DNA of 63,184 bases, counting the filler, from Reclinomonas americana ATCC 50394 (Eukaryota), in assembly GCA_048213135.1 (NCBI GenBank). It is 14 parts of 14 records of this genome, joined end to end, with 100 filler letters (N's around TTAATTAATTAA, not from the genome) between each part and the next. Parts side by side here need not be neighbours in the genome. Positions count along the whole stretch, not along the records: positions 25,283 to 32,779 come from AFZH01021433.1; 13 more parts are not named here. The stretch is one strand, 5' to 3'. A program made the translations under genes and the position numbers. How positions within the stretch are numbered: position 1 is the first letter of the stretch; each line of letters starts with the position of its first letter. The notes under the pieces were generated by a model. It did not search any database and was not told the DNA's origin. It saw only the letters and a program-made list of their open reading frames with translations. Below are positions 2,325 through 48,276 of this stretch, piece by piece.

Positions 2325-5104
2325 ACTTCCACAAACCACAAGCCCGTGCCGTGCGCGACTTGATCGCCAACTGCGCACGCAGCTTGCTGCACGTGGAGCT
2401 GCTGGATGGCTTCGACCTGCCCTTTGACAACGAGTGGATCCAGTCGAGTGTGTTTGAGCAGGCGCGCGGCTTGCGTCGTTTCGTGTCCTCTGACTTCCGA
2501 CACGCGCACTCGGTCGTATCGCTGGCGTATGGAAGCACGCAATTGGCAGAGGTTTGTACACAGCTTTGGTACTCACCCTTCCTTCTCCAATCTCACTCCA
2601 CCACCGCCGACAGGTCGCCCTCCGCAGCTTCCACAATGTCGGCTCGCTGCAGCCGATTGTCGTCACTCATCGCCAATCCCTGCGCATCTTGGTGCTCGAG
2701 GATTCGACCACACTGACCGATCTGTCGTTCCTGCGCACACAGTTCCGTGACAGACAGTCCATCCTGCTTCTCAACACTCTCCCTCTACTCACTCTTTCCT
2801 TGTGCGTGTGCCACAGAGATCGACCTCCCAGCGTACCCGACTCGCCAGCCTCCTCCTCGTTCATGTTCTCACCCAAGTCCTCGCTGTCGGCTGCCATGTC
2901 ACGCAGTCGAAGTGGCATCACCACTCCCGATCTCAATGCCAAGTCGCACGCTCTCGATATCAGCGGCTCGGCCTATTCTCCATTCTCGCTTCGCCGTTGC
3001 GTTCTCTTGTCTCCTCTCCGCTCTCCTTTACATCGTCTCATTTGCCGAGAGCAGTTGAATCGGGAGCCAATGCCAACGAGCCCGTGTCGCTCGAACGCCT
3101 CAATCTAGTCAATTTGCCCAATCTGTCGGGTTTCTCCGACATTAATCTCTGCGGTTTCTCGCTGACATCGCTGCACCTGGAGCGCATCCCCATGTTGTGT
3201 TCCCTTAAATTTATGGAGGTGAGTTGGAGGGAAGAGAAACGTGCTCGTTCTTATCTCTTCTCTCTTATTGTTGCTCTCTTTCCTTCTTCATCTCATCTCT
3301 TCTCATCCCTTCCCTTTCTGTCCGTTGTCGTCCCGTTTTACCTCTTCTCTTCTTTTCGTCTCATTTTTCCTCTTCTTCTTCTCTCTCTCTCCTCTTCTCT
3401 TGTCTTCTCCTTTTCCTCTTCCCGTCTCCTGTCAATTTTCATCGCTTCTCTTCTCTTGTATTCCATGCTCTCATCTTCTGTTCATTTCTCTCTTCTCTTC
3501 TCATCTCTTCTCTTCCCATCTCTTCTCTCTTCTCCTCTCTCCTCTCATGTCCTCTCACTGTCCTCCCCTCTTTTCCTCCCTCCTTCTCATCTCTTCTCTT
3601 CCCATCTCTTCTCTCTTCTCCTCTCTCCTCTCATGTCCTCTCACTTTCCTCCCCTCTTTTCCTCCCTCCTTCTCCTCTCCTCTTTCTCTTCCTCTTCCTC
3701 TTCCTCTTCCTCTTGCCTCTCCTTCACCCTCTCCTCTCCTCTCCTCTCCTCTCCTCTCCTCTCCTCTCCCTCCCCTTCTCATCCGTTCCCCTTCCCCTCT
3801 CCTCCTCCGCCCTCCCCTTCTCATCCCCTTCCTCCCCCTCGATCCCCACAGTCGCTCCGCCTGTGCTTGAAACATCTGTCGGTGATCAACTGCGTCAATC
3901 TGGAGGACCTGTCAGAGCTGCGACAAATGGCCACACTGGAGACTGTTGTGCTGCGCGGCATGCACTCGGCGGTGGAGATCGAGGCCATTGAAGAGTGCCA
4001 GAGGTTACAGAGTGTGACGGTGCAGGACTGCCGCATGCTGGCCTCCATTTCGGGCATCCAGGTGCAGTGTCATCACCACATCCCTTCTTCTTGTCCGTCG
4101 ACTCACACCACCCTCCTTTCCTTCTGCACAGCACTGCTCACAACTCTCCTCCGTCAACATTGGCTTTTGCCCGAAGCTCGGCTCAATCAGCGGCTTCCTC
4201 AACACCCCTGCTCTCACTAAGGTCGAACTGCGCCGCCTGCCCTCGCTGCGCGACATTGGTTTCCTCGCGCGGTGTCCATCGGTGCGCAATCTGCACTTGG
4301 TGCAGTGCGTGCTCGTCGACGATCTCAAAGTTGCGCCGCACACATTTTTTCTGTGCTCCCGTCCTCCTTTATGTGACACTCACCTCTCCGCAGGTACTGG
4401 TGGCTCACAAGGGCCTCCTTACGGTGCACACGGACGCACCGGTGGTGTGGTGGCGCGAGATGCTGGAGGATGCGATTTACGAATACGAGCGTGAGCAACG
4501 GCAGGCCACCATTCTCTCCAACATGCAGCAACAGCAGCAATCGCAGCCGTACTCGGCGCGAGGTGGCACTCCTCGGCACCAAAACCCACTGCCAATGATT
4601 GGCGGCGAGCGTCCGCACACGCCCATCATGGCTGGCGAGTTGCCACATGCACGCGCCGCCGCCGACTTGGGCGACGGATTGGGCATTGCGCCGAGCAGTC
4701 CGTCCGCCTCCCACCGCCTCGGCCGGCGCATGTCTGTCGGACCCGGTCGCATGTCACCGCTGCAGGCGCACGTGGTGGCCACACTGGAGAATAGTGCCAG
4801 TGGAGCGTCGTCGCCGCGCGGCCTGATTGGTTAGCTTTGTGTGCTGCATTGCATCATCTCCTTTTGTCATCTCTGACTCTCTCTTGCACGATTCCCACAG
4901 CTGGATCACCGCCACGCCGCCTACCGCCACTCTTCACTGGGCCCGATTCACCGGTGGCAGGGGGCGACAATGCCGTCAGCACTGGCATACCACCGCGTCG
5001 ACCGTTTGGGAGCGCAGGATCGGCGGCGAATCGTTCGATGCCAGCCGGCACCAATTACGCCAACATGACGGCACCGGCGAGCCCGGCGACGCCCTATGGC
5101 GACA
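2325..5104 (+). CDS. Leucine-rich-repeat protein, internal multi-exon fragment with Ser/Pro-rich tail
   Basis: Spliced translation gives LRILVLEDSTTLTDLSFL, LERLNLVNLPNL, LTSLHLERIPML, LKHLSVINCVNLEDL, LQSVTVQDCRML. Confidence 0.75.
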
Positions 5105-25182: not shown

Positions 25183-25782
25183 NNNNNNNNNNNNNNNNNN
25201 NNNNNNNNNNNNNNNNNNNNNNNNNNTTAATTAATTAANNNNNNNNNNNNNNNNNNNNNNNNNNNNNNNNNNNNNNNNNNNNGGTGGCTGTGTGTGTGCG
25301 CGTGTGTGGGTGGATGTGAGAAGATGCATGCAATCAGCCCGCTCATTTGCATGAAAAAAGAATGCAACTCCGTGAGCTGAGGTCGACCTCGGCGTCGATG
25401 TTCTCACGCGTGGACATTTGCAAAGGATGTATGGGTGTGTCGCTGCACAGCTCCGAGCAGCCAGCGCGCAAGGATCGAGAAGTCTGTTTGTTCGGTTCGC
25501 GGAAGATCTCCCGGACGATCGCGACGTCGATGGAGACCACAGAAGGTTGACAACTCTTGCGCTGCTGTTGTTCTGCTTGTACTGCAGTACGCCATTGCGG
25601 CCTGCGACGGCGATGATGAAGGATTTTGAAGTGGAAGGCAATATCGATATATATCGTGCATGCGCATGCATCGATTTTCCTGCAGTCATGTGCCTCGCTG
25701 CGCTGTGTGCGGTGCATGTGCATGCGTCACGGAACCTCATTCTCCTTGCCGTCTCTCTGGCAAAAAAAAACAAAAAATATAA

Positions 25783-25880
25783 AGTCCACGGCGGGATTTG
25801 AACCCGCGACCTTCAACTCCGGAGGCTGACGCACTCTAGTCAGGCAAAATCTCGCCAGATTACGACTGTGCTACGTGGAC
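25783..25880 (-). tRNA. tRNA-Arg(CCG) with 26-nt D-loop insertion (putative BHB intron)
   Basis: Acceptor GTCCACG/CGTGGAC, D-stem GCAC/GTGC, anticodon arm TCAGC-CTCCGGA-GTTGA, T-arm GCGGG-TTCAAAT-CCCGC, downstream oligo-T terminator. Confidence 0.88.
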
Positions 25881-26227
25881 CTATCGCATGTGACGGCGAT
25901 TTATTATCATGTCTCGCATGCATTCGAGGGAATGCTTCGGCGACGTTGTGGAAACAATCGTGCGCAGCGTGGGCAGGCGAGAGAGAAGTGCATCACGTGC
26001 TGCGACTGCGGAAAGAGCGTTTTATTTCGTCGTTTCGCTGATTATCTGACATTTTCTGCATTGCACAGTTGCATGCACGGCCATCCGCGGCTGAGGAGGA
26101 GGAGGTTGCTCATCGGCACATAGGCGTGTGCGTGCCAACGAGGCCTCCACCCCTCCCCGACGACGGGAAACGAAGCTGTCCTGCCACCAGCGACGTCACC
26201 TTGATTGTTATCGATTGCGCGTGATCG

Positions 26228-29200
26228 ATGCGCCTCGGTGGGGGCGACACACACGGCGGCGGCGGCGGTGGCGGTTTGGCAGCAGCAAACAGCATTCAAG
26301 ACGACGGCACTGACCAGCTCATCTCTGAGCACCAAACACGTTCTGACACGACATGGGTGAGTGACGTGCAACACGGCAGGGGCGAGTGATGAGAACAGAG
26401 GCAGGAGAGAAAGCAAGGAAAGAGAGAGAAAGAAAGAGAGATGAAGAAGACAAGAGAGACAGTGGTCGCCTTCCCGCGTTCCCTTTCTCTCCTCTCTTTC
26501 TCACTCTCCCCCCAGCTTGAGTCGGATGAAGCACTGGAGAATCGCTATCGACGACGACGATACATTGCGTGCGTGATTGTCGGCTGCCTGCTGCTGGCTG
26601 TGTCGGGCGTTGGATTGGCGCTGTGGATGTTGAATCCAGATCCGCCAAGTCCAGGTAAGGAAGAAAGCTTGAACGCCCACTCTCCCTTGGGCCTCACAAT
26701 CTTCTCTCTCTTTCTCTCGCCAGACGGCATGAACATGAGCTTTTCGCCGGCCACCCGTCTCTTCACGCTGTCCTTCCTCGGCAAGGAGCGACTGCACTTG
26801 GCGCTCGGCGTGCAGTTGCCGATTGATGATGCTAACAACAACAATAGCAAGGGTGATCCGGAGCGCCTCGGTTCCGATCGTGTGTACTCGTGGGGCTCCA
26901 CGCGATTGCAAATCACACCCGTGCTGGATGATGACGATCGGTGTGCACGCATCGAGTGGCAGGTGCGTGCTGCGCTCCCGCTCACCAGCCAGTCTCGTAA
27001 GCAACTGAGACACGAGCAGATGCCGAATGAGAACGACAACTCAATCCTCGAGGACTGTGTGCTGCTGGATGCTGGCGTGTCCTGGTACGGCGGTGGGGAG
27101 ACGTACGAGCAAGTGTGGCCAGCAAACCTGGTGGGTTCCACCCACTTGTCTTGTGTGTCGGTACAAGTCTTGCTGGCACCCAACACTTTCCCCTCTCCCA
27201 GGCCATTCGCGAGACTCCGGTGCCTTTCCGTTCAGTGGGCTCGTTCGACGACCGCTCTGCCTTCAACAGTGTGCTGCAGCCACTCTGGTACTCGACATCG
27301 GGTGCCATGGTCCTGGTGGACCGCGACATTCCGCTCATGTACAGCCTTCGAAGTGACAACCGACTTTGCTTGCGTGCGGATCCGGTGGGATTCTACGCGG
27401 CCTTTGGACTGCGCGATCAGGATCCATCTACAGTGGCCCTGCGAGTTGCGTGCAATTGCGTGCGAAACGCACTTGCTCTACACGTGTTTCTCACGTCTCG
27501 CATGTATGTGCGCGCGCGCAGTACACGGTCTGTGGTGCAGAGAATGTGGAGCGGGCTCGTCGTCACCTGTTCTTCTCGGGAAAGATCCCCACTCCAGCAC
27601 ACATACCGGATCAGCGCATGATTCGTGAGCCTGTGTGGTCCACGTGGGCGCGCTACAAGTTGCTTTGGCGTCTTGCTGTCACCTCTCCACCTCGTCGCCT
27701 TGTTCATGTTTTGTGTGTGTGTCGCTCAGATCGGCCATCAACGAGACTGTGGTGATGGACTTTGCCAAGCAAGTCATTCAACATGGTTTCCCGATATCGC
27801 AAATGGAAATCGACGACAGCGTGCGTGCCCACTGACTCCTACGTGTGCTCCTCGCCTTTTGTTCTCTCATTCTCCCCCTCCTGGTTAGTACTCGGCTCAC
27901 TATGGCGACTTCACGTTTGATCCTGCTCGATTCCCCAACGCGGCGCAAATGGTGTCGTCGTTGCAGGACATGGGAGTTGCGTTTGTGGTTCGAGCCTCCT
28001 TTTTTCACTCCGTATCCTCATGCCGTTTCCTCAATGTACTGGCGGCGGTGTAGATCCGAGTGACTCTGTGGGTACATCCGTTCGCCAACCCCGGATCGTC
28101 TGCCTACGACACCGGCGTACAACAGAACTTCTTCGTCACCGACTCGCGTTCCAAACAGACTGCCCAGGTGCAGTGGTGGCACGGCACCGGCGCGTTGTTG
28201 GATGTCACCGATCCGACTGCTAGACGGGTACGACGAACTGCTCCTTTTCTGTATGCCAGCGAGCAAGCCAGCTAACGACTGGTGCACAGTGGTTTGTGTC
28301 GCGTCTGCAGTCCATTCAGAGTTCGTACGGCGTTGATTCGTTCAAGTTTGACGCTGGTGAAACAGTGAGCACGCATCCTTCTCCCACATATTGATCTTCC
28401 GCTCGCTCTCTCTTTCTTTCTGAATCGCTTGTCACAGAACTACCTACCACCCTACTTCTCGACGTATTCGCCACTGGGCTCGCCGGGCGAGTACACCTCC
28501 GCGTATGTGGCCATGGCGGCACACTTTGCGCCACTGGCAGAGGTCCGCTCGGGGTTCTTTTCGCAACGCGCGCCACTGTTTGTGCGCATGCTGGACAAGG
28601 ACTCGACGTGGGGTCTTGACAATGGACTTGCGAGTGTTGTCACCAGCGCCCTCCTGTTCAGCGCGCTCGGCTACCCATTCATTCTGCCCGACATGATCGG
28701 TGCGCAGTGTGTCTCAATGTGTGGTGTTGACATCTGTGGCACTAAATGCGAATGCGGGCCAGGTGGCAACGCGTACGGCAACAACGGGGCCCTGCCGCCA
28801 AAGGAGCTGTACATTCGGTGGCTGCAGGTGACCGCCTTCATGCCGGCCATGCAGTTCTCGATAGCACCCTGGGACTACGACCAAGAGACTGTGGACATTG
28901 CGCTCAAGTTTGCACTGCTGCACGAGCAGCTGGCCGACGAGGTGGGAGCCGAGCATAGCAGATCAACGGGCATCGTCTCACACGCACACTCTCACTGTGC
29001 TGGGCAATCACAGATCATGATTCCCTATGCTCATCGTGCCACGAAAGACGGAACACAGATCATCAGTCCGCTGTGGTGAGTGTGGCTCGATCTAGTGGAG
29101 CATGGACGCGCGCACGTGCGCATCACACATGGTTTGTGCACACGCAGGGTCATTGCACCGGAGGATCCCGAATCGCAGACATGCAATTCTCAGTTTGTCG

Positions 29201-29521
29201 TCGGCGACAAGATCATGGTGGCTCCGGTGCTGGAGAGCGCCGTAAGACAGCGCGACAGTTGCGTTTTTGAGGATTGTGGCTCTGCGCGCGTAGTATGTAT
29301 GTACATGTGCTTACGTGCTGCTGGCAGTTTGGCTTCCACCGGGCGTGTGGCTGGATCGCAATGTTGCGCGCAAAGTGTTTGCTGTGTCTCGCTCGTCCGA
29401 CTATTGACCGACGTTTCAATTGGCACAGAATATGCAACTACTCGGCGGGAGCCAGTGGCTTCGAGAGTACCCGGTGAATCTCGACCAGATCGCGTACTTT
29501 GAGAGACAAGAAACAAGATAA
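26228..29521 (+). CDS. GH31 glycosidase, MYORG-like, type II membrane protein
   Basis: N-terminal TM after RRRR; SWYGGGE, PVWSTWARYK, EIDD, VTLWVHPF, nucleophile FKFDAGE, acid/base ILPDMIGGN, ELYIRW, PAMQFS. Confidence 0.92.
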
Positions 29522-32652: not shown

Positions 32653-32879
32653 GTTGGGAAGAGAAAAGTGTGAGCGTCGTGTGTCCCCGCGTCCCCACAA
32701 TGTCCTACCGCTAGTTATTTGTGCCTTGGGAGAGGTGGCAACGCCCTTGTCGTTGTTAACCCCCCACACTTTTATCCTCNNNNNNNNNNNNNNNNNNNNN
32801 NNNNNNNNNNNNNNNNNNNNNNNTTAATTAATTAANNNNNNNNNNNNNNNNNNNNNNNNNNNNNNNNNNNNNNNNNNNN

Positions 32880-37592: not shown

Positions 37593-39811
37593 ATGCAGAC
37601 TCGGAGGCTTGCCGCTCTCCTCCTGGCATTCCTCCTGTGCCACTATGTGGTCTCGCTTGTCACTGTAGTGGAGGCTGCCAAGGCCCCCAAGGCAGTCAGC
37701 AAGCAGGAAGAAGAGGACGACGACGACGACGAAGACAATGACGAGGGTTTGTCGCCACGTGTCAACGCACACACACATGCTTTGCGCTCTTCACGCTCAC
37801 TCGCATGCCATGTGCAGTGTTGATCATTGGCACACCAGAGGAGGACAGCAGCAGCAGCAGCAACAGCGATGGCGCAGAGCAAAAGAAAGAAGCAGCAGCA
37901 GATGAGAAGCAGAAGGAGGACGAGGTGCCACGATGCGACTCTGTGGACTCGTGCACCGAGGTCATCAGCAAGCACCCGAAGGACCCCGAGGCATATCTGG
38001 TGCGTGCCACCAACTTGGACGAGGAAGGCGATCGCGAGAGCTCGGAGGAGAAGCGACAGGTGTGTGTGCGTGCATTCGTGAGAGCATGAGAGAGAGTGAT
38101 GCACTGACCATGTTCCCACCCACAGGCCAAGTACACGCGTGCAGTGGCCGACATGAGCGAGTATTTCAAGCTGCGTGGCTTCCCCGTGGACAACCCCAAG
38201 TTCCCAGAATCAATGTCGGACCCCGCTCTCGGACCCATTCTGCACCGGTTCGGAACCATGGTGGAGCGACAGCACGACAACAAGACCGCCATTCGCTACT
38301 ACAAGCACGTGGTGGAGCTGTTGCCGGAGAGCGCCGCCGCCATGCATTCACTGGGCTTGGTGCTGTTCACGGAGCGACAGTTCGATGAGGCGCTCAAATT
38401 CTTCAACGAGGCGCTGGAGATCGATTCCGGCAACGTGGGCGTGTTGCACAACCGCGGTCTGTTGTACCTGAACGGCCTGAAGAAACCGAAGGAGGCGCTG
38501 AAGGATTTTGAAAAGTGCTTGAAGCTGGCGGTGGGTTGGCATCACACACGCAGACCCAAGCAGGCAATCGCTAAAACTCTCTGCGCAGCGCGATGACACC
38601 TCACTGCACTACCTGAGCCGTGGCATGGCTCTGGCTGCCTTGGAGAAGTTCCCCGAGGCACTCGCTGATTTCAACAAGGCCGTGGCAGAGGGCGGCACAA
38701 CTGAGCGGGGTGCGGTGAACCAGGATGTCTCCACAGGTGAGCGGGTTTCTCTTCGGCATTTCCCGTTTCTAATCTCACAGTACCTTTGTTGCAGCACTCT
38801 ACTATCGTGGTCTGACGCACACCAGCCTCGGAAACGCCGACATGGCGCTGCAAGACTTTTCCCAGACCCTCACCATGTCACCGCGAGACATTGGCAGTCT
38901 GCGTGCTCGTGGCAATGTGCTTGTCACCATGGGCAAGCTCCCGGAGGCTTTGCGCGACTTTAGCCGCATCATCAAGCTGAATCCCAACGACCCTGACGCG
39001 TACTACCGTCGCGGCCAGGTGCACATGCGATCGAATGAGGTCAAGAAGGCCTTCGAGGACTGTTGCGTGCTGTGCGATTGGCATATTCTTCATCTGCTCG
39101 ATCTCACACCATCGGGGAACGGCGGCGTAGACGACAAGGCACTGGAGTTGGCACCCTCCAACGTGCAGCTTATCTACGAAGTGGCCGTGGAGCATCACAA
39201 GCAGCGACACTTGAAGGACGCCAAGCGCCTCTACAATCGCGCGCTGCAGCTGGACCCGAATCGCGCCGATGTGCACTTTTCACGCGCGCAGCTGTACGTC
39301 GACCGCCACAAGCGCAACAAGGCACTGAAGGACTTTAACCGAGCGATTGAGCTCGATCCCGATGGCAAGGTACGTCGGGGTGAGACACTGCGTCGCTGCC
39401 GAAAGGGAGAAACAAACTGATATCTTCTTGCGTGTGCAAAAAAGACTGCCGCCTCGGCCTATCACTCGCGCGCCTCGCTGCTGGAGGAGATGGGCCGTCG
39501 CGAGGAGGCCTTCAAGGGCTACAACGAGGCCGTGTCGCTGGATCCCACCAACACGGTGGCGCTGTACAACCGCGCGCTGATGCATGAGCGCGTCAAGAGC
39601 TATGCCGAGGCCAGAGCCGACTTTTCCCGTGTGATTGAGCTCAGTCCCAAGTGGCCAGTGGCCTACACGAACCGGTGCAAAGTCAACATGGCGAGCGGAC
39701 GCATGGCCGACGCTCTGGTCGACTGCACCAAGGCCATTGACTTGCTCGGCGACCAGGTGAGAGAGTGTCGGCGGGGAGCAAGTGTGTTGCTTTGCTGTTG
39801 TCACACTCACA

Positions 39812-47752: not shown

Positions 47753-48276
47753 TGTGTGCGTTGTGAAGGGGTAGAGGGGTGAGTGTGGGGTTGGGGTTGG
47801 CGATCCTCTCTCGCTCGATGAAGAAAAGTAGTGCAATCGTCCCGAATCGGATCAAACCGCGCCGAACTTTTCGGGCAAAAAAACACGGTTACATTTTGCC
47901 GCAAACACAGACACACACAGAGAGAGAAAGGGAGAAATGCAGAAGCGAGAAAAGAGTCACAAGGGAACAAAAGGAAGGACACACCGGGCAAAGTAGTTTG
48001 TAGAAATGAGCAACACACGAGAAACAGGAAAAACGGAAACCACCGCGACCAATTTCTACGTGTCCAAAAGAAGCGGTGCCTTTCTTACACCAGTGGCGCT
48101 CGCCTGTGTTCGCGTATCTGCAACGTCCTTTGGGTCAGCCAGAAGAGGAGGCGTATTAACAAACGAGCACAACAAANNNNNNNNNNNNNNNNNNNNNNNN
48201 NNNNNNNNNNNNNNNNNNNNTTAATTAATTAANNNNNNNNNNNNNNNNNNNNNNNNNNNNNNNNNNNNNNNNNNNN

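Follow-up and report, generated by a model that had tools for sequence, protein, structure and literature searches.

A nuclear tRNA-Arg(CCG) gene, complete in its cloverleaf and interrupted in its D-loop, is the subject of this report, and the interpretation that we favor, with a probability of about one half, is that 26 nt of the enlarged loop constitute a protein-spliced intron at tRNA position 20/21. The gene lies in a window of 63,184 nt, filler included, which is the whole stretch of DNA that was analyzed. This window is composed of 14 contigs of 1.2–12 kb with 13 identical spacers between them (N44-TTAATTAATTAA-N44, with stops in six frames; e.g., at 1864-1963, 25183-25282, and 32780-32879), and features are not readable across the spacers.

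By anatomy, the locus is a genuine tRNA-Arg(CCG) gene, as its tRNA body far exceeds what chance would produce. It is read on the minus strand over 98 nt, with the boundaries that a sequence-only reading of this DNA had assigned to it (Table 1), and all 21 of its 21 stem pairs are intact, one of them being G-U, which bears out the statement in that reading that every arm is canonical. The acceptor stem pairs at 7 of 7 positions (GTCCACG/CGTGGAC) and is followed by T8 and A9, the D-stem at 4 of 4 (GCAC/GTGC) and is followed by G26, the anticodon stem at 5 of 5 including the G-U pair (TCAGC/GTTGA), and the T-stem at 5 of 5 (GCGGG/CCCGC) around the T-loop TTCAAAT. The anticodon loop, CTCCGGA, has 7 nt with U33 in place, the variable region (AGGTC) has 5 nt, and U8, A14, A21, U33, and G53-C61 are all found at the expected sites, such that the gene presents the cloverleaf of an elongator tRNA; it does not encode CCA. 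This cloverleaf is also the best fold of the 98-nt gene (-37.8 kcal/mol, z -2.87). The D-loop is 33 nt long, and its sequence is exactly that given in the sequence-only reading.

Table 1. Features of the tRNA-Arg(CCG) locus and its neighborhood, in window coordinates; cut sites and intron parts are predictions
Feature	Position	Strand	Description	Basis
tRNA-Arg(CCG) gene with insert	25783..25880	minus	98 nt with the discriminator T (25783)	sequence and fold
Anticodon CCG	25820..25822	minus		sequence and ARAGORN on deletion variants
T-rich tract	25761..25782	minus	runs of 6 and 9 T; directly 3' of the gene	
A/T-rich ATGATAATAAAT element	25899..25910	minus	19-30 nt upstream of the tRNA gene	
Central helix, exon strand AGUC	25864..25867	minus	tRNA positions 14-17; pairs with 25838-25841	
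Central helix, intron strand GACU	25838..25841	minus		best fold
3' AGA bulge	25835..25837	minus	between central helix and D-stem	unpaired in best fold
5' side internal loop GUAAUCU	25857..25863	minus	contains the predicted 5' cut; not a closed 3-nt bulge	
Predicted intron hairpin	25843..25856	minus	GGCGA / loop GAUU / UUGCC	pair probabilities 0.76-0.95
Predicted 5' exon	25862..25880	minus	gene positions 1-19: acceptor 5' strand, U8 A9, GCAC, six D-loop nt	
Predicted 26-nt intron	25836..25861	minus	tRNA position 20/21	BHB-rule cut
Predicted 3' exon	25783..25835	minus	A21, GTGC, anticodon arm, variable region, T arm, acceptor 3' strand, discriminator	
GH31 (MYORG-like) gene	26441..29506	plus		tblastn of three homologues, intron sequences, Pfam PF01055 and PF21365

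The insert conceals the gene from models of tRNA. ARAGORN reported no tRNA in the whole window, whether anticodon-loop introns were allowed or not, and Rfam gave no match to the locus at the gathering score; at a permissive threshold, the tmRNA model, which belongs to the tRNA clan, matched the T arm alone, scoring 17.3 bits. Deletions of 14–32 nt were then made in silico inside the D-loop, 120 in all, and each variant was run through ARAGORN, resulting in tRNA-Arg(ccg) for 84 of them, tRNA-Val for 2, and no call for 34. The Arg(ccg) calls come back once at least 20 nt have been deleted, and calls on the deletion variants persist up to 116–118% of the default threshold. Because deletion restores the call, the gene body is a good tRNA-Arg(CCG), hidden by the insert alone.

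The flanks of the gene are consistent with transcription by RNA polymerase III. The T-rich tract that follows it directly is likely a terminator for this polymerase, and the A/T-rich ATGATAATAAAT element before it is possibly a TATA-like upstream element. The gene is present once in the 63-kb window, with neither a further copy nor a fragment, and therefore does not belong to a repeat or SINE family there, and no second tRNA gene was found in the window, given that a T-stem is present at only 1 of 12 B-box-like sites, namely that of tRNA-Arg(CCG) itself. A candidate B-box at 52350 on the minus strand turned out not to belong to a tRNA. Neither metagenome contigs nor contigs of prokaryote genomes contained the exact 40-nt 3' part of the tRNA (0 matches in each); a gapped pattern, made of the D-arm exons and the anticodon loop, hit 5 metagenome loci, none with a tRNA, and these are read as chance. 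Of 109 Arg codons counted in 8 ORF pieces with Pfam support, 12 are CGG, and since these codons are in use, the organism needs a decoder of the CCG type. The intact stems, the call restored by deletion, the T-run and A/T-rich element at either end, the single copy in the window, and the use of CGG are all in line with a gene whose insert would be removed as an intron.

Pol III-type signals and a stable 98-nt form, in which a cloverleaf carries one extra hairpin, would also be expected of an unspliced tRNA-like RNA whose D-arm is extended and which has some other role, as a regulatory transcript or a source of small RNAs. We consider such an RNA quite improbable, for the hairpin in the D-loop would block the elbow formed by the D-loop and T-loop, the window holds no repeat family or second copy and Rfam no match at gathering score, and no precedent for it was found in the literature consulted.

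The tRNA-Arg(CCG) gene is nuclear and eukaryotic, as the sequence-only reading had held, and not an archaeal contaminant, because it shares a contig (25283-32779) with genes that have short GT-AG introns. The GH31 gene, divergent from the tRNA and encoded on the opposite strand, has its start at a distance of about 560 nt and contains at least three introns of 50–75 nt that begin with GT and end with AG. In tblastn, the matches of its homologues shift frame at gaps of about 50–75 nt with protein coordinates remaining continuous, and frame changes in this gene are confined to these intron-like gaps. The GH31 gene is followed on the other strand by a gene for acyl-CoA oxidase, and G+C is 54–60% (55–60% for the tRNA contig).

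Proteins of the window were compared with Pfam, and families were recognized in 20 of its 120 ORF pieces, including Kelch, calpain, GH31, ACOX, TPR, pyrophosphatase, an OCRL-type 5-phosphatase with ASH, a UDP-glucuronate decarboxylase-like epimerase, and arginase; no Sen2/Sen34-type endonuclease or tRNA ligase was found among these 120 pieces of the window. The best matches, at 44–63% identity, are proteins of bacteria, animals, or metagenomes. The UXS piece reaches 60–63% (61% at best in a full HMMER search), the GH31 piece 47% as measured over one exon, mostly with animal MYORG/KIAA1161, and the ACOX piece 44% with 1 match. Of 10 protein clusters consulted, 1 bore a name, which was cyanobacterial, and Atlas searches yielded no taxon. 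In the collections searched, relatives of the window proteins are no closer than 44–61% identity.

To the cloverleaf, the best fold of the gene adds a 4-bp AGUC/GACU helix, a 3-nt AGA bulge, and a 5-bp GGCGA/UUGCC hairpin, where AGUC represents the first four nucleotides of the D-loop and GACU lies near the end of the insert. The central helix has a pair probability of 0.44–0.46. In the motif list, it is placed at gene positions 14 and 40, with an outer helix of 4 bp, which is the D-stem, and an inner helix of 1 bp; the G18:U39 pair has a probability of 0.40. The sequence-only reading had described a complete bulge-helix-bulge, or BHB, geometry, of which the AGA bulge and the AGTC/GACT helix are present in the MFE fold and the 3-nt bulge on the 5' side is not. 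The A:U pair supposed to close the latter has a probability of only 0.001, and the conformer that contains it is 3.9 kcal/mol worse than that with the G-U pair (-32.1 versus -36.0 kcal/mol). Because the 5' bulge is not closed for this reason, the motif is, in these models, of the relaxed hBH/BHL kind, composed of one 3-nt bulge, a 4-bp helix, and an internal loop with the D-stem as outer helix, rather than a strict hBHBh' with two 3-nt bulges, each closed by a further helix.

According to a rule that Marck and Grosjean reportedly laid down in 2003, the cut on each strand lies two nucleotides beyond the 3' end of the 4-bp helix. Under this BHB cut rule, the 5' cut is predicted between 25862 and 25861 and the 3' cut between 25836 and 25835, which reproduces the 26-nt interval put forward in the sequence-only reading. 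The hBH in the best fold would be in the sole register in which all of the D-stem serves as outer helix and A21 is retained, and the model to this extent favors an intron; the predicted 5' cut would fall outside any closed bulge, which counts against one. A spliceosomal intron of the GT...AG type, covering 28 nt of the insert, was considered and rejected, as it would leave a D-loop of 5 nt.

Comparable structures are not rare in shuffled sequence. In 20,000 shuffles each of the whole 33-nt loop or of the 26-nt insert alone, a relaxed motif leaving a D-loop of 7–11 nt arose in 23.8% of the whole-loop shuffles and a strict motif in 2.7%, and an hBH in the same register arose in 2.15% of the insert-only shuffles. 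The D-arm segment by itself is no stabler than its shuffles (z -1.02), 35 of 200 being as good. The BHB-like geometry is therefore mildly beyond chance, and the fold by itself is weak evidence for an intron, as 2–24% of shuffles are comparable, depending on the criterion. The frequency of relaxed motifs and the ordinary stability of the D-arm are points against the intron.

The same frequency speaks for the alternative that the locus is a pseudogene or an inactive extra copy of tRNA-Arg(CCG), in which the D-loop would have received an insertion of 22–26 nt, the hairpin and the 4-bp complementarity would have come about by chance or as a by-product, and the RNA, where transcribed at all, would not be matured. 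This explanation, which we hold to be possible although short of probable, draws on what is recorded of eukaryotic tRNA genes in general. Yoshihisa 2014 (PMC4090602) reports that insertions in the D- and T-arms are sporadic, mostly affect a single copy among many synonymous ones, and are usually deemed pseudogenes; tRNA-Arg(CCG) resembles them in being one gene with a D-arm insertion that standard tools do not call, and differs from them in that its insert stands in a splice-competent register, exactly that which an intron at 20/21 needs and which was reached in 2.15% of the insert shuffles. The 5' site is unstructured, as might be expected of a chance insertion, and the insert is surrounded by a TA...TA direct repeat reminiscent of a target duplication, a repeat of 2 nt being weak evidence. 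Damage to the gene, however, is limited to the insert and to a C at the site of G18, with every stem pair and the other conserved loop positions kept and with the terminator and upstream element intact, which speaks against this explanation.

The missing G18 is a difficulty under every explanation. The rule-based cut would leave a 7-nt D-loop comprising A14, a purine at 15, a pyrimidine at 16, one G, a pyrimidine, and A21, in which the site of the expected G18 is occupied by C and the G18 G19 pair is absent. It would be unusual for a functional cytosolic tRNA to lack G18, and this speaks against the intron and in favor of a pseudogene, the D-loop of which would lack one of two invariant G. Nevertheless, a simple insertion in a normal D-loop does not account for the missing G either: the only adjacent GG of the 33-nt loop sits within the insert, and no single deletion leaves a D-loop of 7–11 nt that keeps two adjacent G. 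The sequence-only reading had suggested that cutting one nucleotide earlier would restore the GG; it does so, but no BHB register was found to match this cut.

If the single G of the 5' loop were followed by another, cutting would yield a normal D-loop, and the missing G may stem from a G-run that was under-called in a fragmented draft. In a wider form, this idea would make the insert itself, a miscalled base, or an under-called G-run an artefact of sequencing or assembly, to which a draft in contigs this short lends some plausibility. We judge such an artefact to be very unlikely as the explanation of the locus, in view of the structured 26-nt insert, which is untypical of assembly errors, and of the neighboring GH31 gene, in which the frame shifts at intron-like gaps alone.

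Under the intron interpretation, RNA polymerase III would transcribe the interrupted gene, and in the precursor the first four nucleotides of the D-loop would pair with the last four nucleotides but two of the intron, giving a 4-bp helix stacked on the D-stem. This helix would be flanked by the 3-nt bulge on its 3' side and by a larger loop on its 5' side, and the rest of the intron would form the 5-bp hairpin. A tRNA splicing endonuclease of the Sen2/Sen34 type would then have to read the bulge-helix geometry, without measuring from the tRNA body, and to cut two nucleotides past the 3' end of each helix strand, whereupon a tRNA ligase would join the halves into a 72-nt tRNA with a D-loop of 7 nt.

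Precedents for such an arrangement exist, as ectopic nuclear tRNA introns are already established in red algae and nucleomorphs, and the 20/21 site has already been seen in a red alga. In Chondrus crispus, introns of nuclear tRNA genes are located in the D-loop at 20/21, and their splicing has been shown by RT-PCR (Cognat et al., PlantRNA 2.0, bioRxiv 10.1101/2021.12.21.473619). The likeness extends to the fact that nuclear tRNA genes were scored as pseudogenes or missed by standard finders and that BHB-like structures were predicted; in the alga, however, the site is common to many tRNA genes, the splicing of which is proven, whereas tRNA-Arg(CCG) is one gene, known from its sequence. For Cyanidioschyzon merolae, Soma et al. 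2013 (PMC3728597) describe 42 introns in 27 tRNA genes, 14 of them in D-loops and with lengths of 11–69 bp, the motifs of which range from strict hBHBh' to relaxed hBH/BHL, hBH being frequent, together with permuted genes, with experimental proof. There, too, the genes are nuclear, and the intron either breaks up the A box or shifts it (PMC3728597). In the nucleomorph of Guillardia theta, insertions of 3–24 nt in the D- and T-arms of tRNAs are removed in vivo (Kawach et al. 2005, via PMC4090602 and PMC3728597), which is again a case of eukaryote-encoded tRNA genes with insertions at non-canonical positions. The sequence-only reading had named archaea and C. merolae as the places where D-loop introns are typical, a list that lacked C. 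crispus and the G. theta nucleomorph. By analogy with these organisms, the predicted position, the same as in C. crispus, and the predicted length of 26 nt, within the range of C. merolae, would argue for an intron.

The host of tRNA-Arg(CCG) does not share the genome features of these three. Its genes are rich in spliceosomal introns of 50–75 nt, in contrast to the genome of C. merolae, which is almost without spliceosomal introns, so that C. merolae is excluded as the source of the window, and such richness does not match the known picture of C. crispus. A trypanosomatid origin, to which ESAG8-like leucine-rich repeats had pointed, is excluded on the same ground, trypanosomatids being poor in introns. 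Nucleomorph genomes are tiny and A+T-rich, unlike the tRNA contig with its G+C content given above.

The motif of tRNA-Arg(CCG) resembles archaeal non-canonical BHB/BHL introns in its 4-bp helix, its 3-nt bulge, its use of a tRNA stem as outer helix, and its location outside the anticodon loop (PMC6379350), but the relaxed motifs of archaea need endonucleases of the (alpha-beta)2 or epsilon2 kind (PMC6379350), and the contig here is eukaryotic. According to Hirata 2019 (PMC6379350), canonical BHB introns of archaeal pre-tRNA can be removed by the ordinary endonuclease of eukaryotes, which for BHL requires the mature domain. A position-independent endonuclease, which the sequence-only reading had considered possible for this organism, is in this light not strictly required. 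In C. merolae, Sen54 or Sen15 is reported to be missing or diverged. Given this dependence on the mature domain, a D-loop motif of the relaxed kind is nonetheless a harder substrate, and the D-loop hairpin would disturb the very mature body on which the enzyme depends. Together with the view of arm insertions as pseudogenes, this requirement is a point from the literature against splicing.

Should the gene be spliced, a further eukaryotic nuclear genome, possibly of a new lineage, would be found to have tRNA genes masked by ectopic introns, and the tRNA set of the organism would be under-called by tools of the tRNAscan type. Splicing would also bear on whether eukaryotic ectopic introns are an archaeal inheritance or of repeated origin, and on the way in which an endonuclease of eukaryotes, which normally measures from the tRNA body, copes with a disrupted D-loop elbow in its substrate. 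An intron would gain added interest from its host, should the latter fall outside the red algae. The broader claim, that a eukaryote outside the red algae and the descendants represented by nucleomorphs splices D-loop tRNA introns by means of an archaeal-style bulge-helix motif, strikes us as rather unlikely. If it were true, position-independent tRNA splicing would be more scattered among eukaryotes than the picture centered on red algae implies, and the genome should contain more hidden tRNA genes, whether ectopic, multiple, or permuted. If the locus is a pseudogene, the finding is an ordinary one.

Several minor observations concern the surroundings of the tRNA. Weak matches to three families of box C/D snoRNA were obtained at 25608-25681 on the plus strand, with E values of 0.48–3.3 and far under the gathering scores; they begin at a GATGATGA motif about 100 nt past the tRNA terminator, on the other strand, no clear D box was seen in them, and they are probably due to chance. 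The window contains 49 copies of the palindrome GCATGC, whereas base composition alone would by a rough estimate give about 18, and several copies lie around the tRNA (25659-25727, 25916-25923, and 26066-26075); this excess may reflect a promoter motif or a dinucleotide effect.

The window is unusual in its splice-site and dinucleotide profile, which might be of use in placing the host. Four inferred introns, at 27663-27712, 27818-27888, 29257-29326, and 39370-39446, start with GTTGCT, GTGCGT, GTTGCG, and GTACGT, respectively. In the 63 kb, GTAAGT is absent from the plus strand and has 3 copies on the minus strand, compared with 38 and 40 copies of GTGAGT, respectively, and TpA is strongly depleted (odds 0.36).

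Among the protein-coding genes, that of the OCRL-type inositol 5-phosphatase with ASH domain, at 48225-50654 on the minus strand, has several exons and crosses a contig break. A C-terminal part of a UDP-glucuronate decarboxylase-like protein is encoded at 52515-53363 on the plus strand and ends in an Ala/Ser-rich tail, the start of which is covered only by one metagenome protein of 167 aa with 61% identity, possibly derived, to judge from this sequence match, from a related organism. Leucine-rich repeat proteins of the cysteine-containing kind, at 2-757 and 2751-4494 on the plus strand, have no Pfam family at E 0.001 and contain long low-complexity inserts of Ser, Leu, and Pro.
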